Assembly (NCBI GenBank): GCA_963833985.1
Contig: CAWIAD010000001.1
Coordinates: 1,984,001 to 2,048,000, forward strand
DNA from: an uncultured Planctomycetaceae bacterium
GTDB lineage: Bacteria; Planctomycetota; Planctomycetia; Isosphaerales; Isosphaeraceae
Length of the DNA stretch: 64,000 nt
Direction: 5' to 3'
In this document: positions 4,704 to 64,000 of the stretch, piece after piece
How positions within the stretch are numbered: position 1 is the stretch's first letter
Layout of the letters: every line of letters begins with the position of its first letter
Made by a program: the position numbers and the translations under genes
Notes under the pieces: generated by a model
What the model saw: only the letters and a program-made list of their open reading frames with translations
What the model was told of the DNA's origin: nothing
Database searches by the model: none

Positions 4704-4787
4704 GTGCGACCCTCCCAGGAAACCACCAGGAACGTCACCAGTAAGCTCATTCTAGGCGACGGTGCGGCCAGGCCTCAAGCGAGGCAT

Positions 4788-4899
4788 CTTCTAAATAGAT
4801 CCTCGCCTCTTGGAATGTGGGCCAGCCGCCCTCGGCTGGCTCAGGACGGCCGAGGGCGGCCGTTCCACACTTTCCCTCTTACGGGTAGCGATTTAGAAG
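4788..4899. repeat. REP-like doublet (4817-4868) inside a short inverted-repeat shell
   Basis: GTGGGCCAGCCGCCCTCGGCTG ... CGGCCGAGGGCGGCCGTTCCAC inverted pair; flanking CTTCTAAAT (4788-4796) / ATTTAGAAG (4891-4899). Confidence 0.6.
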
Positions 4900-4957
4900 T
4901 CCCGCGTGATCGGCGGAAGTCGGCCTGGCGGCAAGCCCGTCCATACCAGGGCTATGC

Positions 4958-11838: not shown

Positions 11839-11956
11839 AGGCTTACCGCCCGCCGCCAGCCAGTTTTTTCCCGCCACTGTTCCTGTCGCCACCCTGCTGG
11901 ACCGGCTGGAAAACCTCACATCCTGCATCGGCACGCACCCGGCTCGCTGCTGAATT

Positions 11957-12096
11957 TGAGCAGATCCGCAGAAGTCTTTTGGCAGGATTGCAGTTCGCTT
12001 GCCCGGGGGCTGAGGGCCCTGCCTGACCGCTCTCCTTGTGGGGTACGATTCCAATCGTGCCATTCCTGGTCCATCAGATAGAAGAAGTGACACCAT
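11957..12096. repeat. Left half of a REP-containing, inverted-repeat-bounded element (family A) interrupted by the group II intron
   Basis: Aligns with 53054-53222; contains GTGGGGTACGATTCCAATCGTGCCA. Confidence 0.85.
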
Positions 12097-12260
12097 GTAG
12101 AGTCGAGGTGTGGCGCGGTGGGCTCGAGTCGATGGCTCGGCTGGGCCTCGTTTCCACACCCCGCTCATCAAACTGGACGGGCGGTTTTCCCGCATCCAGC
12201 TTTCGGACAAGGCTTGTCTCATCGGTTGAGTTCACACGTTCGCTCACGAAACCATCGCGG

Positions 12261-12860
12261 CTAGGTTCGTTGCAGCTGGTAAAGATGCAACTCCTGGTGC
12301 AGGTATCTGTCAGGGTAGCGTCTGAGCCCCTGACCCGGCACCTTGAACTTCGCACACAACCACTGACGTACCCGGTAGCGGACGTGGTGGTTGACTTGGC
12401 GATAGGCTGGGCTCACCGTTCCGATGCGAAAATAGTTGGACCAACCGCGTAACTTGCGATTGATCCGACCAATCTGCATCTCGACGTCCTGTCCAGTGGT
12501 CTGGCGCGTCGTCATCGCACTGATCTCGCTGCACAGCCGAATGATCTTCTTCCGCGATGGGCGTGACCCTATGTAGGATCGGCCCGTTCGTCGGTCGTAG
12601 TTCCGGCCGAGGGTATAACCCAGAAAGTCGAACGTCTCCTCAGGCAGGTGGCACAGCCGCGTCTTGGTCTCGTTCACCGTTAACTTCAGCCTGGACATCA
12701 TCTTCCGCATCACCGTCATGGCCTCTTCGGCCGTGCCGCGACAGCAGATGACGAAGTCGTCCGCATAGTTGACGATTCGCGCGACCAGACGCCGCTCGTG
12801 TCCACCAGTCTTCCATCCCTTCACAAATCGTCGCATGTAGATGTTGGACAACAATGGTGA
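12261..12860 (-). pseudogene. ltrA: Group II intron RT/maturase, C-terminal half (YADD and domain X; no En domain)
   Basis: SPLLSNIYM...IVNYADDFVI...FDFLGY...LRGWSNYF; separated from its N-half by the insertion. Confidence 0.92.
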
Positions 12861-14514
12861 GATCACGCCCCCAACAATGTTGCGAACTACGTTGTTGGGG
12901 GCCTTTCTCAAAAGGGGACGGACTGACCCGATACACGATGCGGACCTCCTGCTCGTCGATCTCGACCTTCTTCACCAAGGCCCGAACCACCTCCCGTCGC
13001 GTGGCCCAGTCCGGCTCTTGCAACCCTTGCGAGACGCGACGTGCGAACTCCTCCAACTGACCGATCACCAGTCGCAATTCCGCCTCTTGGGCGGCCTCGC
13101 CGATTCGTTGTCGATGCTCCTCCGCCAATCTCGAGAGGCGCGTCCTTGCCGCCGAGATCCGGGGCTCGAACTCCGATTTGTCGAGCAACCCGTCGCCGTA
13201 AGCATCGATTAATCGAGAAATCATCTTTTTCACATTATTTATCAATTTGCCGAGATGCTCCACCTCCTGATTCGGCCCGCCCTGGGCACCCTGCAGCCGC
13301 CGCTCGTACTCCTCCCGGACCCGCTCCGGCTCGGACAGGAGACCTCGTAAGTCCTCCCAGACGGCAGCGTCAAGGATATCGGTGCGGATCTGCTTGTTCC
13401 AGCAGAGGCGCTGCCCGCCGAAACGATAGGCGTCAGAGCCCGTGCAACGGTAGTACGCGTAGCGGACCCTACCCTTGCCCTCGAACGCGGCTCGGCTCGT
13501 CGGCTTGCCGTAGCAGCCGTAGCCGCAGCGCTTGCAGACGACCAGGCCCTGGAGCAGATATCGGCCACCGCCGGGCCGGTCGCGACGGCGTTGCCGGTTC
13601 TCTTCAAGCTGGGCCTGGACAGCCAGGAAGAGGTCTTCGCTCACCAGCCCGGGGACTTCAATGAAGATTTGATCTTCCGAGGATGTATCAACCCGTGAGA
13701 CCGGTCGCCGGGAGTGTTCGGGGCGGCCTCGCTGCGGGCGGAGGCGTTGAGGTTTGAACTCACCTGAGCGCGTCTTGCCGAAGGCCGCGGTCCCCTTGTA
13801 GGCAGGGTTCTTGAGGATCAACCAGACCGTCGCGCGATCCCAGGCCGATTTCCCGGTCCGCGTCGGGATACTGTCGCGCCGGAGGCGTCGGCACACCTCG
13901 CCGATCGAGCACCGTTCCTGACCCACCCATTCGAAGATCTTCCGCACGACCCGGGACTCTTCAGCGAGGACCTGATAACGCGCCTCGCCACCTCCCTCGT
14001 GCTTGCCGATGTAACGGTAGCCGTACGGCGCGCCGCTGAGGACGTTGACCGAACCGCGGCGGGCGGCGTGTTGCTTGCCCCTGCGGCAACGCTCCATGAT
14101 CTTGGCGCGCTCGTATTCCGCGATCATTCCCTGGACCTGAAGCAGCAGGTCGGCTTCCGGACTGCGGCCGACGGGGTTGCGCAAGAAGACGACCTCGACA
14201 CCGCACCGGATAAGTTCCTCAAGGATCAAGACCTGATAGGCATACTTGCGTGAAAGTCGATCCGGATCGAGCATATAGAGGCGGTCGATGGCTCCAGCGG
14301 CGGCTTGGTCCCGAAGTCGCTCGAGTGCCGGTCGGGCCAGGATGTAACCGCTGACGCCGTCGTCCACGAAGTGCAGTTCGGGCTCGCATTCCAAGCCATC
14401 AGTGGCGATCCGCTGAGTGACCGCCTCGAGCTGGCTGGCGATCGTGTCCTCCTTCTCCTGCTGCTCCCCCGAAACCCGGGCGTAGAGCGCCACGCGGAGA
14501 TTGTCCGTGATCAT
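12640..14514 (-). CDS. Large serine recombinase (resolvase, recombinase, Zn-ribbon and coiled-coil domains)
   Basis: ALYARVS (catalytic Ser15), DDGVSG, RPALERL, DRLSRK, AEYER, GAPYGY, ILKNPAYKG, LLQGLVVCKRCG...YYRC. The ORF runs past the element end into intron sequence. Confidence 0.95.
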   Translation of the reverse strand: MITDNLRVALYARVSGEQQEKEDTIASQLEAVTQRIATDGLECEPELHFVDDGVSGYILARPALERLRDQAAAGAIDRLYMLDPDRLSRKYAYQVLILEELIRCGVEVVFLRNPVGRSPEADLLLQVQGMIAEYERAKIMERCRRGKQHAARRGSVNVLSGAPYGYRYIGKHEGGGEARYQVLAEESRVVRKIFEWVGQERCSIGEVCRRLRRDSIPTRTGKSAWDRATVWLILKNPAYKGTAAFGKTRSGEFKPQRLRPQRGRPEHSRRPVSRVDTSSEDQIFIEVPGLVSEDLFLAVQAQLEENRQRRRDRPGGGRYLLQGLVVCKRCGYGCYGKPTSRAAFEGKGRVRYAYYRCTGSDAYRFGGQRLCWNKQIRTDILDAAVWEDLRGLLSEPERVREEYERRLQGAQGGPNQEVEHLGKLINNVKKMISRLIDAYGDGLLDKSEFEPRISAARTRLSRLAEEHRQRIGEAAQEAELRLVIGQLEEFARRVSQGLQEPDWATRREVVRALVKKVEIDEQEVRIVYRVSPSPFEKGPQQRSSQHCWGRDLTIVVQHLHATICEGMEDWWTRAASGRANRQLCGRLRHLLSRHGRRGHDGDAEDDVQAEVNGERDQDAAVPPA

Positions 14515-14879
14515 GGTTTGTCAAACCCCCCCGACCTTGGACTGGATAGTGTGGACCACAGTCGCGTGGTTGCGGCTGGGTCGCGGCCGATCCAGGCGCT
14601 GCGAAACGACCGGGATCAAGACCTGATATGCACGCGCGATCAATTGCTCCTGAAGCCGAGTGAACTCGAAGTGGCGGGTGACAGGAGGACTGAACGTGGG
14701 CCTCCGTGGGGACGTGATCATGTCGACTCCTCCTCTCCGAGAGCGCGGCCGCCAGCCTGCCTTGGATCGGGATCGAGTCGGGGCTGCCATCCGTGCCCGT
14801 ACTTCGGTCGAAGCCGCGATCTGGAAATGACAGAGTCAGGAATCAGGGACGATTTTGCAACATTGTTGGGGGCGTGATC
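12861..14879 (-). mobile_element. Minimal large-serine-recombinase element with 23-bp perfect terminal inverted repeats and GATC core
   Basis: GATCACGCCCCCAACAATGTTGC (12861-12883) and GCAACATTGTTGGGGGCGTGATC (14857-14879); removal rejoins the RT in frame. Confidence 0.93.
14521..14721 (-). CDS. Small basic protein upstream of the recombinase (candidate accessory/directionality factor)
   Basis: GGAGGAG RBS before ATG at 14721; 66 aa MITSPRRP...RAYQVLIPVV...; ends 6 nt before the recombinase start. Confidence 0.6.
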   Translation of the reverse strand: MITSPRRPTFSPPVTRHFEFTRLQEQLIARAYQVLIPVVSQRLDRPRPSRNHATVVHTIQSKVGGV

Positions 14880-15574
14880 GGTGCACCTTGCGGTGTACCC
14901 ATCCCCTGGTCTTTATTCCGGGTCGTTCGATGGCGCTGCCCCTTCCCGTCGGTTTCTTCCACCGGTGTTTCCAGCCACATCTTGATCAGCCGCAGGACGC
15001 GACCGTCGCTGATGCGCCGTGACGCCGATTTCATTAACTCGGAATGGGGTATGCTATCGAAATATCCAGATAAGTCCGCGTCCACCACCTCGGTGTGCCC
15101 CGTCTTGAGCAGCCGTTCGACTTCGCGGACGGCGTCCAGGGCGCTGCGCTCCGGGCGGTAGGCGTGTTGTTCCGGCTCCAGGTCGGCCTCGAAGATCGGC
15201 TCCAAGACCAGCACCGCAGCCATCTGCACCACACGATCCTTGATGCAAGGAATGCCCAGCGGCCTTTGCTTGCCGTCCCCTTTGGGGATGTACACGCGCC
15301 GCACCGCCTGGGGTTGATACGTCTCCTTACGAAGTTGTTCCGCCAGTTCGTCCAGCCATCGTTCCTTCCCGGACGCCTCGATGTCGGCGAAACTCTGGCC
15401 GTCGATCCCCGGCGCGCCGCCGTTGGCACGGCAGCGTTCGTAGGCGAATCCCAGAACGTCACGTCGATAAATCTTGTCGTACAGGACGTAGAACCGATAG
15501 TTGGGCGCGTTCTTCGCTTTGGTGTGCAACGCCGTCTGCAACTTCCCGACCTTCAGTGGAGGTGATAGACTCAC
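14876..15574 (-). pseudogene. ltrA: Group II intron RT/maturase, N-terminal half (RT0-RT4)
   Basis: RFYVLYDKI, ANGGAPGIDG, YIPKGDGKQRPLGIP, VVDADLSGYFDSIPH, GTPQGAPI then the element junction. Confidence 0.92.
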
Positions 15575-16105
15575 GCCAATCTCCCGGCTGTCTGCCGCTT
15601 GTTGCGTTGACCTTGAACCAAGGCCCCTTCCCTCGACCGGAGTTACCCGGCGTCGACGGTACTACGGGCCTCTCCGCCACCCCAGGCAGCCCGGCCGGTC
15701 CCTCGCGGGCGTCCGGTTGAGGGTCACGCGCCCTCACCGCTTGGGGTTTCCCGTGTTGTGTTGATCTCCGTGTGCCGACATGCCGTCGTCAATACCCCGG
15801 TGGCCCGCTGGGTTCTGATCGCTCGTGGGGCGGCCTATTCCAACCGTTTCCCTTTCATCCCCAGCGACGGCGGCCTTCCCCATATTCCAGCAAGGTCGGC
15901 GACCACATTGGACTTTTCGAGGCCTGCTCAACGTTCACTCGCGTTACGGCCTGTCGGTTCGCTGCATCGCCAAGCGACACATCTGTCTCGAAGGCTCCGA
16001 CGGTTTCGTCTCCTCCACCGCCGCTCCGATAGCTACCGGCTGGAGCGACCCAGTTGCCGGGTGGGAGTTACACCCACTGAAGACCAACACCTTTCCACGG
16101 CGCAC

Positions 16106-16238
16106 GGGAGTCGTGTCCCACGAGGTGATTGAATTGACACGATTGGGTATCGTGGCCCACAAGGAGCGGCCTGCCGGTCATCCAGGATCGCATCAACCTG
16201 CTGAATGCCTGTCAAAGAACGATTGCGAACCTGCTTAG
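16106..16238. repeat. Right half of the family A element interrupted by the intron
   Basis: Aligns with 53223-53313 (GAGCGGCCT.CCGGTCATCCAGGATCGCATCAACCT...GATTGCGAACCTG); carries two reverse REP units. Confidence 0.85.
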
Positions 16239-16437
16239 ACTTTCTTTCAAGTTGTGCCGATGAGCCGAGTCTCGCCGGAGAAATCGGTAACACCGGCATT
16301 TTCTCTCCAGCCAGCCGAGCCACCGCGCCGATTCAACGGGTGGCATGGAGCGCGAAAGCTTCTCCGTTCCGCGTTTTGCAGGCAGGAACCTGCATGCAAC
16401 CGCGGTCAGAATGAATTCGGGGAGGGCGAGCCTCGCG

Positions 16438-43572: not shown

Positions 43573-43658
43573 GGCACGCCCGACCCACCGGCCAGGACGC
43601 CGCCCTTTTTCCTTCAGTTCGGACGGAGAAGTGAGGTGCGGGGGACCCTTTCGCAGAG

Positions 43659-43901
43659 CTAACCCAGTACCGTTGAAATAGCGATCAGTTGAGTGCAGGC
43701 AGAAGTTTGTCCCTCGTTCCCACGCTCTGCGTGGGAATGCCGTCTGCGACGCTCCGCGTCGATTGGGCCCGGGCCGAGGCTGGGAAATCCATGGGACGCT
43801 GAGCGTCCCGACCGGTGTTCCCACGCAGAGCGTGGGAACAAGTTGTTCACAAATCTCTTGCCTCATTATTGTGAACACGATCTCAACGGTATTAGCGCTA
43901 G
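43659..43901. repeat. REP-like doublet (43713-43842) inside an about 30-bp imperfect inverted-repeat shell
   Basis: CTCGTTCCCACGCTCTGCGTGGGAA ... TTCCCACGCAGAGCGTGGGAACAAG; shell CTAACCCAGTACCGTTGAAATAGCGATCA versus reverse complement CTAGCGCTAATACCGTTGAGATCGTGTTCA. Confidence 0.75.
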
Positions 43902-45316
43902 CCCTTTCCCTTCGCCAGGATCTGGAGGATCTGCTCCACCTTCGATTCAAGGCTCTCCAGCCGCCGGATCACGCTGGCCGGATCAGAGTCCGTCGCCGGC
44001 TGGTTGAGGGCCCTCGATTCCTGGGCGATCCGGCGCTTCAGACGCGCGAGTTCAAGACGGCCTTCCTTGTACTCCTGGATCGCCTGCTCGGTTCCCATCT
44101 TGAGATCGTCAAGCCTCTTGCGGCTTTCCTCGGCGATCTTCTTTCGCTCCTCAGGTGTGACCTGGGGCATACCTCCACCCATACCTCCACCCATCCCTCC
44201 CCCTATTCCTCCATAAAAGGGCGTTTCCCACTGCCTGATCGCCTGGAGCTGACGCTGAACGGCTGCCTTGAGATCCGATGTTTTGATCTCCAGCAGCTCC
44301 GCTTCCACTCTGTGTGTTTCCAGCCGGTCAGCGAGTTGATCGACATCCACAAGTCCATTCTCGAACACCGCCCCCTTGGGCAGGTCATTGAGTGCCTTGT
44401 GAGCGGGATCCGCTGCTCGTTGGCGCTTTTCTCACCGGTCCGCGAAGCGCCATCATCGGCTGCCTTTTTCGCCGTCTGGCTGGCGATGGCGCAGGCCCGT
44501 TCCGGCTGCAAGAAGAACCAGGGCCGAGGCAGACAGCCCCATCAGCACCCATCTGAGCTTGTTCATGAACATGGTGAAGACAACTCCCTGTGCAAGATGG
44601 GAAAGGCGAAGTGAGACACCGTGATCGAGCAAGGCCGCGGTCGAGCGGAGCAGTGCATCGGGCAAGGATGACGGGCCGGAGCGCAGCCGTGCCAGCACGG
44701 AGGGCATGCCGGCGGTCAAGCTCGCCCCGCGCCGGTCCAGCCGGTCGCGAAGCTTGTCGCGGGCCCGGGCCAGCCGCCCGCGCACCGTGCCGATGGGCCA
44801 GCACAGCCGCGCCGCGGCGTCATCGTGCGTGAGTCCTTCGAGGTAGCACAGGACGATCGGCTGCCGGTACTTCTCGGGCAGGCGGTCAATCTCCTGGTGC
44901 AGCAGACAGAGTTCCTCCTGTTCCTGGATGGTGCTGGTGCTGGTGTCTTGCAGGGGATCCGCCAGCATGCGGACCGGCGCGGGCTTGCGGCGGATCGCTG
45001 CGGCGGTGCGGTACGCGACCCCGTACAGCCAGGACGCCAGGCTCCCCGGCCGCTTGATCGTTGCGGCCTTGCGCAGGAACACCAGGAAGGTCGCCTGGAA
45101 GGCGTCGTCCACGTCGTTCGGGTCGCTGAGCAACTGCCGGCAGACGGAGAGCACCAGCGGCCCGTGCCGCTCGAGGATAGCCTCGGCCACCGACCTTTCC
45201 GGGCAGTCCAGGAACCGCGCCAGCAATTGCTCGTCGCTCAGGCCGGTGAGCGTGCCGCATTGCATGAGCACGTCCAGGTCCCTGGCAATCTGCACGCCCC
45301 CGCGTCTTCGTAGCAT
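43898..45316 (-). CDS. ECF sigma factor with TM and long C-terminal extension; two frameshifts (about 44480 and 44380)
   Basis: [51 protein letters not shown]; extension spread over ORFs 44203..44511 and 43898..44368. Confidence 0.85.
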
Positions 45317-51442: not shown

Positions 51443-52904
51443 GCCAACCGGATTTATCGAGATTCCACGCGAGCTGCCGAACCGCCGGCCCGTCGAGGAG
51501 CGGGTGCGCGACTACTTCGAGGTCTACCATCCCTTCCCCGAGGACAAGCTCCAGGCGCAAGGCGCGCGTTGCATGGACTGCGGCATCCCCTTCTGCCACC
51601 AGGGCTGCCCGCTGGGGAACCTCATCCCCGACTGGAACGACCTCGTCTACCGCGCGCAGTGGCGGCTGGCCATCGACCGTCTGCACGCCACGAACAACTT
51701 CCCCGAGTTCACCGGCAAGCTCTGCCCCGCCCCGTGCGAAGCCTCGTGCGTGCTGGGAATCAACAACGACCCGGTGACCATCAAGCAGATCGAGGCCAGC
51801 ATCATCGAGCGCGCCTGGGACGAGGGCTGGGTGCTGCCCCAGCCGCCCGCGGTGCGCACCGGCAAGACCGTCGCCGTGGTGGGCTCGGGCCCGGCCGGCC
51901 TCGCCTGTGCCCAGCAACTGGCACGGGCCGGACACGCGGTCACCGTGTTCGAACGCGCCGACCGCATCGGCGGCCTGCTGCGCTACGGGATCCCGGACTT
52001 CAAGATGGAGAAGCGGCATCTCGACCGGCGTCTTCACCAGATGGAAGCCGAGGGGGTGGTCTTCGAGGCCGGCGTGAACATTGGTGTGGATGTCACCGCC
52101 GAGCGGCTGCTGGACCAGTTCGATGCCGTCTGCCTGTGCGGAGGCGCCACCCAGTATCGCGACCTGCCCATCGAGGGCCGCGAGCTGGCAGGCATCTACC
52201 CGGCCATGCAGTTCCTGACCATGCAGAACCGCCGCGTGGCCGGCGATTCCTGCAACGGCGAGTTCATCTCCGCGGCCGACAAGCACGTGATCATCATCGG
52301 CGGCGGCGACACCGGTGCGGACTGCCTGGGCACCGTCCATCGCCACGGCTGCAAGAGCGTGCACCAGTTCGAGATCGTCCCCCGGCCGCCCGACCTGCGG
52401 GCGCCGGTCAATCCCTGGCCGCAATGGTCGAACGTCTTCCGCGTCTCCTCCGCGCACGAGGAAGGCGGCGTCCGCGAGTACTCCATCAACACCCGCCGCT
52501 TCGTCGGCCAGCAGGGCCACGTGCAGGCCCTGGAGACCGTCCAGGTGGAGATGAAGGTTGAGGGCGGCCGCGCCCGCTTCGCCGAGGTCCCGGGCTCCGA
52601 AAAGACCTACGCCGCCGACCTGGTCCTGCTCGCCATGGGATTCGTCGGCCCCGAGAAGAAGGGCATGCTCGAGCAGTTCGGCGTGGACCTTGATGCGGCC
52701 GGCAACGTCAAGGCTGACGCGGACAAGCGCACCAGCGTGGACAAGGTCTTCACGGCCGGCGACATGACCCGCGGCCAGAGCCTCATCGTCTGGGCCATCG
52801 CCGAGGGCCGCCACGCCGCGCGCTCGATCGACGAGTTCCTCATGGGCAGCTCCCAGCTTCCCGCACCACTCCAGTACGGCAACCAGGGCCGGCCGTTCGT
52901 CTAG
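51435..52904 (+). CDS. gltD: Glutamate synthase small subunit
   Basis: [53 protein letters not shown]. Confidence 0.97.
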
Positions 52905-53048
52905 AGCGGTTTTCTGACGCGTTGCGGGCAGTTTCTGTGTTTCGGAAAGGGGGGCAGACATTCCTGTCTGCCAGGACAGGCCTGCTCCGGCAGGCAGGAA
53001 TGCCTGCCCCCCGGTCTCAGTCTGCGATCCGAGTGAAAACCGCTCGAA
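52901..53048. repeat. MITE-like element starting at the gltD stop, containing a REP doublet (52949-53012)
   Basis: CTAGAGCGGTTTTC ... GAAAACCGCTC inverted ends; internal GGGGCAGACATTCCTGTCTGCC / GGCAGGCAGGAATGCCTGCCCC. Confidence 0.75.
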
Positions 53049-53053
53049 ACCAG

Positions 53054-53313
53054 GCAGGTCCGCGGAAGTCCTTGGACAGGATTGCCGTTCGCTTGCCCGG
53101 GGCTGAGAGCCCTGCCTGGCCGCTCTCCTGGCGGGGTACGATTCCCATCGTGCCATTCGATTCTCGTGGGGTACGATTCCGATCGTGCCATTCCTGGTCC
53201 ATCAGATAGAAAAAGTGACGCGAATGGTATCGTGTCCCACGAAGAGCGGCCTCCCGGTCATCCAGGATCGCATCAACCTTATGAATGCCTGTCAAATAAT
53301 GATTGCGAACCTG
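53054..53313. repeat. Uninterrupted copy of the family A element (inverted ends plus three REP units)
   Basis: Colinear with 11960-12096 joined to 16106-16233; ends CAGGTCCGC...GACAGG / CCTGTC...GCGAACCTG. Confidence 0.88.
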
Positions 53314-53436
53314 TTCAGGATCCCCGTTTCGTTCCCGGCGGTATAATAGATTCGTGGGAGACAGCAGATCGTGGAACCGCCGGGTGCCGCGTATCGCCGC
53401 GAGTTCCGGCTGCTAACCTGGGCGGAGGGTGAACCG

Positions 53437-61685: not shown

Positions 61686-61785
61686 AGGCAGAATCACCGA
61701 CCACGGGAAGCCCACCTTCATCGTGGAGGTCACAGGGATCGTGGTCGAAGATCGCGAACCCCGCTGCGCCTGACGCTTTCTCAGT

Positions 61786-62231
61786 TGTGTCGGGTGTGTC
61801 CAGCGCAGCGACGACGCACCGTTTTGCGGCTCGGGCTTCCTCACCGGTCGGGCTCACGCCCGAGGTTGGAGGCTGCGCCCGTGAAAACCACGTACTGACG
61901 CACGTGGCCATGTGCCGCAGAGTGGCATCGTCCCAGAATGGCCTTGGCGCGCCGACCGTAGGGTGGGTCAGCGTAGCGCAACCCACCGGCTGGCAGGGCC
62001 TTGCGTGCGCCGAACCGCACACGCCGTACGACGTCCTGGGACGATGCCCGCAGAGTCCATCACGCCCGCGCACGGTGGCGTGCGTCGCGGGCTCCAGGTG
62101 TGTCGGGTGTGTCCAGCGCAGCGACGACGCACCGTTTTGCGTTCCTGGCTTCCTCACTGGTCGGGCTCACGCCCGAGGTTGGGGGCTGCGCCCGTGAAAA
62201 CCACGTGATCACGCACGTGGCCATGCGCCGC
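61786..62231. repeat. About 130-bp direct repeat pair (about 61786-61919 and 62098-62231) with REP-like heads, flanking a GTAG REP
   Basis: GTGTCGGGTGTGTCCAGCGCAGCGACGACGCACCGTTTTGCG...GCCCGTGAAAACCACGT...CACGTGGCCATG occurs twice; GTAGGGTGGGTCAGCGTAGCGCAACCCACC at 61958. Confidence 0.85.
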
Positions 62232-62644
62232 ATAGTCCGTGGCGCTGGCGCATGTGGCCATCTGCCGCAGAATCCATGGTGCCCGCGCACGTGGCCATGC
62301 GCCCGGGCTCCAGGCGGAGAAGTCATGGTGCGCGCCCCGGCACGCAAGGATTGCGTGCCCTGCGGCGATGCGGATGCGGACGCAGACGCCCCGGCACGCA
62401 AGCATCGCCTGCCGTACGAACACACCTGCCCGACGGCTGGGGGGGAAAATCAAAAATTCCCCCGGATTCCTCCGATTTTTGGCAGTTTCGGTCGGATCCT
62501 CATAGATAGACGGCAGATCCCGGCACATCGGCCGCGGCTCGCCGAGAGGGCCGCTCCCCGCGCCGCTCCTCAGGTGAACCGCCGGCCGGGGCCGCTCTGC
62601 ACACCGCATACACGACCTGCACCAAAAACAAAGAGAGCAACACC

Positions 62645-64000
62645 GTGGCCACCACAGCCCAGATCGCGGCCAATCGCCGCAACGCCGCAAAAAGCACGGG
62701 GCCGAAGAGCGACCAGGGCAAGGCCCGCGCCCGGCTCAACGCGCTGAGGCATGGCGCCAACGCCCGCATCGCCATACCGGTCCTTCCCCAGGAAGATCCG
62801 AAGGAGCTCGCCGAACGGATCTTGCAGTGGACGTTCGAACTCGTGCCGCGCAACGACGTCGAACGCACCCTGGTCGGCCACGCGGCGCGCATCGATTGGC
62901 AGATCGACCGCGCCGAGCGGGCCGAGACGGCTTACCTCGCGGCTCGCGTCCACCGCCAGCGCGACCGCGACGAGGCCGGGCGGCTGAAGCAGGCCCACCT
63001 CCTGGGCCGCAAGCTGCTGGACACCCTCGACCCGCGCGAGCGGTTCGGCAAGGCCGAGTACTACGAGGACATGCCCGCCGTCTTCCTCGCCCGGCTCGAG
63101 CAGCTCCCCGAGGGCTGCCGCTGGCTCCTCGCGCGGTGGTCCGAGTTCCGCAACCTCATCGACGTGCGGGCCGCCTGGAGCGAAACCGACCACTACCGAT
63201 TCCTGCGGCTCATGGGCAAGAGCTTCCTGGAAGGGATGATCGACCCGGCCGCCAACCGCGTATTCCAGGCCGTCGACGCGATCGAGCCGGGTCAGGGCCG
63301 CGAGCTCTGGGAGCTGTTCCGCAACATGAAAGCCAGTTCCGGCCCCTATTTCAGCGGCGCGATGCCGTGGCGGCGCTGTCGCGCCCGCCGGCGAACGCGA
63401 AAGAGGGCTGGGAGGTCCTCAGCTCGATCGTGGACGAGGCGATCCACCGGCTGGAAGCGCGGCTCGCCGAGCACGAGGACCTGGAGCAGATCGAAGCCGA
63501 CGCCGAGCCCGACCGCGCGGTCTTCGCCGCCAGCAAGGCCGTCGCGGTCCTGCGCAGGCACCAGGGCGCGCTGACCCGCGAGCTGCTGCGTACGCTGACC
63601 GCGCTGTCGAAGCTGCAAAAAGCCGAGCTCGGCGCCGACAACAACAACGAAGCCGACCGCCTCCCCATGCCGGTTGTCCATGAGCCACAGATCGGCCCCG
63701 CGCCCCAGCCGGACGCACGTCAACCACACGATGAATCGCGCAACGGCCGGAATGAAGGGGATGGTCCCGGGATGGCGTCGAGCGGGGGCATCCCGCACGT
63801 AAAGGTCTGCAAGCCAGTGGGTTGCGCTGCGCTGACCCACCCTACGGGTGATTCACCACGAGTTTTTCGCAGTATCTTGAACGAAGCCAATGTTTTGGCG
63901 ATGCAAGTGGATAGTGGCAAGGAGGATACAGCCGTTGCAGAGCGCATCCGGCGGCCAGAACGAACCCAATCGCGCACGCGCCTCGGGCAGGATGCGAATG
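62645..64000 (+). CDS. Hypothetical protein of the ANRRNA-STGP-NALRHG family; frameshift near 63380, open to window end
   Basis: MATTAQIAANRRNAAKSTGPKSDQGKARARLNALRHG; continues EGWEVLSSIVDEAIHRLE... in another frame with no stop before 64000. Confidence 0.75.
63808..63847 (-). repeat. GTAG-type REP, inverted partner of the copy at 61956
   Basis: Reverse complement CCGTAGGGTGGGTCAGCGCAGCGCAACCCACTGGCTTGCAG versus CCGTAGGGTGGGTCAGCGTAGCGCAACCCACCGGCTGGCAG. Confidence 0.85.

Follow-up and report, generated by a model that had tools for sequence, protein, structure and literature searches.

A two-gene serine recombinase element of group II introns encodes a conserved recombinase tail in its circular form

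Introduction

The directionality of serine integrases is an active question, both for mechanistic studies and for genome engineering. Models of directionality for these enzymes rely on a separate directionality factor (RDF) and, in large serine recombinases (LSRs), RDF action and the control of direction have been located at the junction between DBD2 and the coiled coil, where the RDF of phage LSRs binds (PMC11722253, PMC11795197). The integrase of phage Mx8 (IntP/IntR), and likewise that of Mx9, carries attP within its own gene and has its C-terminus replaced upon integration; for Mx8, 112 residues are exchanged for 13 and the activity changes (PMC6070905, PMC4701971). The Mx8 enzyme is a tyrosine recombinase that acts at a fixed chromosomal site and acquires one defined replacement end. 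The serine integrases of the streptococcal ICEs that target rumA, which are large conjugative elements, also have C-termini that differ between the excised and integrated states, although a functional difference has only been proposed (PMC4701971). The LSR transposons Tn4451 and Tn4453 (TnpX) form a circular intermediate and use 2-bp sites; they carry mobilization and resistance genes, display low target specificity, and have no RDF (PMC5704250).

Here we analyze a window (the whole stretch of DNA under study, 64,000 nucleotides) from an uncultured Planctomycetaceae bacterium. It contains an element which, unlike Mx8, encodes a serine recombinase, spans only 2 kb, is found in either orientation, and acquires random replacement ends. 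In contrast to the rumA ICEs, this element comprises two genes, lacks a transfer module, and targets another mobile element. The location of att within an integrase gene with exchange of the C-terminus is already known from Mx8 and the rumA ICEs; what appears to be new is an intron-targeting family with a circle-only tail under selection. No description of an intron-targeting LSR family was found in the literature searched (subscription papers and ISfinder were outside its scope). The main text of Durrant et al. (PMC10083194) does not mention "reverse transcriptase," and the supplementary files examined contain none of the terms "group II intron," "maturase," "reverse transcriptase," and "LtrA." With an element of 2 kb, the family lends itself to direct tests, a selected tail being present in cis in one DNA state only.

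Results and Discussion

The host of the element is a group II intron (positions 12097 to 16121 of the minus strand; ~2.0 kb without the element), as indicated by the presence of D1 and D5/D6 RNA domains and of a reverse transcriptase (RT)/maturase open reading frame (ORF). Rfam models matched D1-D4-4 at 15939-16079 and D5/D6 at 12122-12204, and the limits of the intron were placed where the copies in the genome diverge. Two element-free introns are present in the same genome. The 5' half of the RT/maturase gene (14879 to 15574, minus strand; RVT_1 and TIGR04416) extends up to the GTPQGAP motif and the 3' half (12261 to 12860, minus strand; RVT_1 and GIIM) starts with (I)SPLLSNIY, the gene being split between GTPQGAP and ISPLL by an insert of 2015 bp. 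Removal of the insert, which yields the empty site, led to an open RT gene of 433 codons. The intron is in turn nested in a dispersed repeat of ~250 bp (11956-12096 and 16122-16260), so that the order of nesting is repeat, intron, and recombinase element. This repeat is also found at 4780-4914, 43658-43904, and 52891-53316 of the window, and 23 of its 57 matches in the genome span the empty insertion point.

The LSR element, including both GATC cores, occupies positions 12861 to 14879 (minus strand) and is present in the genome as 11 full copies with 99.95-100% identity. The cores at 12861 and 14876 define a circle of 2015 bp, with AT as the crossover dinucleotide (14877-14878 and 12862-12863). 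The two ends carry inverted arms of 26 nt each. The attL end (14854-14879, minus strand), recognized by inverted repeat I1 and by an end profile, consists of the core and the P' arm and encodes the first codons of the tail described below. The attR end (12861-12886, minus strand), recognized by the inverted arm and the in silico circle, consists of the P arm and the core and encodes SQHCWGRD, the last eight codons before the crossover. The body of the recombinase gene (12862-14514, minus strand; Resolvase, Recombinase, zinc ribbon, and coiled coil) comprises 551 codons and has no stop codon inside the element. In the integrated state, the ORF (14514-12640, minus strand) encodes 624 residues, 551 specified inside the element and 73 outside by an alternative frame of the 3' half of the RT gene (12640-12861, minus strand). 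In the circle, the same frame continues into a tail of 52 residues plus a stop codon (HAPNN...EEEST; 14718-14876, minus strand), which has no start codon of its own and leads to a recombinase of 603 residues. The tail was identified in the in silico circle, in homologs, and in the natural joined forms L081 and P0022 (see below). Its stop codon (TGA, 14720-14718) overlaps the ATG (14721) of a small conserved ORF of 66 codons (14521-14721, minus strand), a candidate directionality factor gene separated from the recombinase start by a 6-nt spacer (14520-14515). The 2015-bp element holds these two ORFs and has no room for cargo. This anatomy had been predicted from the sequence of the window, and all the figures (551, 624, and 603 residues, the TGA-ATG overlap, the 6-nt spacer, and the 2015-bp circle) were reproduced, as was the encoding of SQHCWGRD by the terminal repeat.

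Based on its domains, fold, catalytic motif, and 2-bp crossover, all deduced from sequence, the recombinase is an LSR. Pfam analysis detected the Resolvase, Recombinase, and zinc-ribbon domains, with an inserted coiled coil, and only serine recombinase domains. The N-terminal catalytic motif of LSRs, Y-x-R-x-S, is present as YARVS at residues 11-15. A Foldseek search with the predicted structure (see below) identified the LSR fold, with SPbeta-type, LI, phiC31, and Bxb1 integrases as the best matches (E values of 1e-13 to 1e-8; 15-19% identity), and the element resembles the SPbeta, LI/A118, phiC31, and Bxb1 systems with respect to domain order, fold, and the short central crossover. Within the recombinase gene, attP follows the final beta-hairpin of the zinc-ribbon domain; to our knowledge, the genes of phage large serine integrases lie wholly outside attP. 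Membership in the CcrB, CcrC, XisF, and IS607 families was ruled out by scores under the curated NCBIfam cutoffs (102.7 versus 900, 85.7 versus 900, 101 versus 375, and 25.9 versus 110).

Comparison of the 11 copies revealed that the integrated end of the recombinase depends upon the insertion site. Seven copies are located in the intron in the orientation of the RT gene, with the 73-residue borrowed end; another two occupy this intron site in inverted orientation (47 residues), and two are off target (22 and 24 residues), one of them with an internal frameshift. Hence, the borrowed end is determined by the target sequence. The 73 RT-derived residues, initially regarded as a functional form of the C-terminus, are thus incidental, and integrated ends ranged from 0 to 372 residues in homologs (median, 30.5; 56 measurable ends). 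Recombinase ORFs annotated in genomes are integrated forms with such arbitrary ends, so that pipelines relying on these annotations would clone the wrong protein. The off-target junctions, which have only 0 to 2 core bases in common, restrict the crossover to the two bases at the center of the core, corresponding at the sequence level to the 2-bp staggered crossover of LSRs. Nine of the 11 resolved full intron copies of the genome are interrupted by the element, which behaves as a parasite of group II introns.

In order to place these features in a family, species genomes were scanned, yielding at least 548 relatives, from which 79 loci were taken. Both ends were placed in 60 loci, the remaining 19 (an end missing or uncertain) being dropped before counting. 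With the window, this set comprised 61 elements (33 after dereplication) from Planctomycetota, Chloroflexota, Acidobacteriota, and Pseudomonadota; the homologs are related, and the counts are not independent. The same dinucleotide was found at both element ends in 39 of the 61 elements, and the cores differed in the other 22, a property that, together with the occurrence of both orientations, distinguishes the element from phage LSRs. The RT motif GxPQG..SPLL was the target of 40 of the 59 elements with sufficient flanking sequence, and the RT frame was restored at 40 of the 59 sites. These 40 insertions were in the same (n = 18) or opposite (n = 22) orientation. Phage-type serine integrases are unidirectional, excision requiring an RDF, and the outer motif of their sites is ~5 bp closer in attB than in attP; the consensus att arms of the present family fit a 5-bp shift on the SPLL arm only. 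Membership in the described systems was excluded for the Mx8 phage integrase family by the presence of serine recombinase domains only in a two-gene element, for the rumA-targeting ICEs and dICEs by the RT-motif target (40 of 59) and the presence of two ORFs in 2015 bp, and for Tn4451/Tn4453, characterized by a Mob relaxase and cat cargo, by the absence of room for cargo and the strong motif preference. The present element resembles Tn4451 in combining an LSR with a circle; the circle junction of Tn4451 and Tn4453 makes a promoter and is not known to provide a protein end. Two relatives (L089 and L094) are inserted in a transposase-like motif, between LPxRW.V and ERTFAWL, rather than in an RT gene. 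We take this target to be an IS5-type transposase; these sites suggest that subfamilies aim at the motifs of different mobile elements.

The phase in which the recombinase frame reached the crossover was identical in 60 of the 61 complete elements, and the last 100 recombinase codons were open in 60 of the 61. Circle tails had a median length of 52 codons (interquartile range, 50-58) and contained at least 28 codons in all elements but one. In L026, a stop codon was found 7 codons past the junction. The tail frame was open over at least 45 codons in 27 of the 33 dereplicated elements, in comparison to 0 and 4 of 33 for the other two frames and to 5.5 expected from shuffles. One element alone is weak evidence, because an open stretch of 45 codons has a chance of ~17% in a single element under base shuffling. 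The original prediction had suggested testing, by in silico circularization of homologs, whether the open frame and the ATGA overlap are conserved; the former was and the latter was not (see below). Random stop positions after the junction, named in advance as the refuting outcome, did not occur. Thus, the C-terminus of the recombinase differs between the integrated and excised states, as anticipated, and does so with a conserved phase and a circle-only tail under selection.

Analysis of 15 disjoint pairs indicated that codons 10-33 of the tail (14778-14849, minus strand), located beyond the att arm, are under purifying selection as protein, with a dN/dS ratio of 0.28 and 31/10/55 changes by codon position. 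The other two frames gave ratios of 0.77 and 2.32. Selection was relaxed at codons 34-49 (0.80) and weaker for the tail outside Planctomycetes (0.54; 5 pairs), the ratio for the recombinase body being 0.16. Synonymous divergence in the tail was half of that in the body (0.18 versus 0.37), indicating that a constraint also acts at the DNA level. The aligned tails share NNVAK-x2-3-EF-x3-I-x-R-x2-LRP-x-YG, the first five residues being set by the att arm, and their similarity is apparent at the protein level across phyla, with in-frame length changes. A profile built from Planctomycete tails ranked the in-frame reading first among the six frames for 19 of the 26 elements from other clades, with scores of 5 bits or more for 16 of these 19, and missed 7 of the 26 distant tails. 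Among six distant plasmid-borne relatives (39-52% identity), hand-picked from 577 matching records, five kept the phase, their tails spanning 30-130 codons and carrying a comparable strand motif, and the sixth was frameshifted close to its end; L090 has such a frameshift in an A-run. Because no start codon is conserved, translation of the tail from a start of its own was rejected, and the tail had no sequence match in the PDB. The RLRP of the tail (14805-14820) resembles a conserved RLRP-x-RG loop of the recombinase domain (13740-13770), a likeness which may be due to chance and led one alignment to misplace tails onto the internal loop.

Circle junctions were also found in natural sequences. 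The metagenome contig L081 (2114 nt) has a 123-nt terminal overlap corresponding to a circle of 1991 bp. It is 99.9% identical to an integrated copy (L034), and its junction is read through in frame into the tail. A recombinase ending with CWGRD-HAPNNVAK...EST is present in the database as protein P0022, encoded by a contig of 1509 nt. Tandem copies could be an alternative source of such junctions; neither the attP pattern nor tandem copies were found in any of 201 related genomes. In metagenomes, the attP pattern had nine matches, L081 and eight unrelated palindromes, and it had no match in viral contigs. The circle junction of the element of this genome was detected neither in its own contigs nor in the 201 related genomes. 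Mapping of four soil metagenome runs revealed sparse contigs of relatives, and none of the joints listed came from a back-joining contig. Of the 114 C-termini listed, 1 combined the recombinase end with the tail, and no further tail-bearing recombinase was found among the 150 matches listed for protein representatives at 50% identity. In two other database proteins (P0023 and P0031), the tail continues in frame into the small ORF, which in a circle amounts to a fusion of the recombinase and the small protein; these may be sequencing frameshifts.

P0022 was modeled with AlphaFold2 (AF2), using an alignment of 40 natural rows in which body and tail sequences were unpaired (pTM of 0.48 and 0.62 for the models obtained). 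The model displayed the canonical LSR fold, and the linker encoded by att was predicted to be disordered (pLDDT <50). The tail core was predicted with moderate confidence to form a short beta-strand (residues 435-438; block pLDDT of 76 and 67). The same strand was obtained with the same confidence in a model without the recombinase domain, indicating that its partner would be the zinc-ribbon/coiled-coil part. Thus, there is moderate support, from modeling, for packing of the tail strand on that part of the protein.

According to our proposal, this minimal LSR transposon of two genes would move through a circle and insert in either orientation into the RT genes of group II introns, by a 2-bp crossover between the GxPQGxx and ISPLL codons. 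Because attP is inside the recombinase gene, an integrated copy would produce the three canonical domains followed by a random host-derived end, and the circle would produce the three-domain recombinase followed by a conserved tail of ~30-50 residues. Since a lone integrated copy makes only the tail-less enzyme, this form must presumably be able to excise the element, perhaps with the product of the small ORF as a directionality factor. In the enzyme born from the circle, a strand of the tail would pack on the zinc-ribbon/coiled-coil part, the region that controls direction in LSRs, and would either favor attP x attB integration or impair excision, generating a self-resetting switch held in the state of the DNA, as in phage Mx8. 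We assign a probability of roughly 0.55 to such a switch, in which the tail-less recombinase excises and the tailed recombinase integrates; the state of the DNA would probably tune whether the enzyme inserts or excises. More tentatively, control of direction may reside in a covalent domain that depends on the DNA state, the tail rebuilt by excision docking at the zinc-ribbon/coiled-coil hinge and converting an excision-competent into an integration-specific enzyme. If the tail does dock at this hinge, recombination would rewrite the enzyme that performs it, in a widespread serine integrase family.

It is also plausible, though less likely, that the tail makes the fold more stable or the enzyme more active in both directions, the integrated enzyme being weak or short-lived and the element quiet; direction would then depend on the small ORF or on att geometry. 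The conservation data fit this explanation equally well, the integrated Mx8 integrase has been described as less active (PMC4701971), and a conserved small ORF of the size of a directionality factor is present in 60 of the 61 elements (dN/dS, 0.21). However, a lone integrated copy must still be excised by a tail-less enzyme, the 11 near-identical copies indicate recent mobility, and the tail strand is modeled with only the direction-controlling domain present.

The product of the small ORF has the motif V-x3-FE-x2-RL...L-x2-AY-x2-L-x-P and, by its size and location, is a candidate directionality factor. Searches revealed no credible Pfam family (seven single-member matches with E values of at least 0.03) and no NCBIfam or PDB match, the only matches being to unnamed atlas clusters below 0.9. 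A longer version of 89 residues was rejected, since its ATG is missing in close relatives. In three larger homologs of 2.24-2.26 kb (L091, L092, and L093), an extra gene is located between the tail and the small ORF; it is annotated as ribbon-helix-helix in L092 and L093.

The ATGA junction at the start of the small ORF was found in 12 of the 33 dereplicated elements (11 by script, plus L006, in which the small ORF is frameshifted). In the remaining 21 elements, the tail overlaps or passes the small-ORF start (n = 11) or stops short of it (n = 9), or the small ORF has no match (n = 1). The carriers occupy three places in the tree (an Isosphaeraceae-type clade, a Pseudomonas/Burkholderiaceae clade, and L028). 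In the window, the small ORF is preceded by its own Shine-Dalgarno-like motif, GAGGAGGAG (14727-14735, minus strand), 5 nt upstream from the ATG. Translational coupling is therefore a clade feature at most, as judged from these sequences. It is accordingly improbable that the main purpose of the tail is to let ribosomes that have completed the recombinase of the circle reinitiate at the small ORF, whose product would be made mainly from circles: the recurrence of ATGA in three places of the tree would fit such a role, but most elements lack it, the small ORF of the window has its own Shine-Dalgarno-like motif, and selection on tail residues 10-33 is left unexplained. About as improbable is the conservation of the left end as DNA or RNA (a promoter or an accessory binding site) with the open frame as a by-product, since the low synonymous divergence of the tail region, the need for a fully coding circle to hide its promoter inside coding sequence, and the encoding of the first eight tail codons by the att arm are outweighed by the third-position bias past that arm, the low dN/dS in the recombinase frame only, the protein-level similarity across phyla despite in-frame length changes, and the absence of a sigma-70-like site in 12500-15100 (scanned in the integrated arrangement).

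Additional observations concern the copies and their surroundings. All seven composites with the intron and the element in the same orientation have one base in common at position 12846, 15 nt from the core, and both element-free introns and both inverted copies carry another base. These same-orientation composites may have spread as one unit, mobilized in trans by an intact RT. Positions 61782-63999 of the window form a multi-copy region, with up to 35 matches in the genome, which contains an ORF of 309 codons (62645-63574) without a Pfam match. In L067 (3620-3645 and 5615-5640), an element with a CG core is located just after an intact RT gene, in a sequence resembling intron domain V, a split domain that Rfam cannot see. 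The elements in L007 and L055 are flanked on either side by one and the same half of the target, in inverted orientation (219 and 76 nt); such flanks point to misassembly or to recombination between copies of opposite orientation. The genome containing the window (G000) also harbors a decayed intron with a diverged (81%) remnant of the element (C2, 4627307-4628497), and contigs C1 and C2 both start at an intron-element junction, which may represent a twelfth copy.
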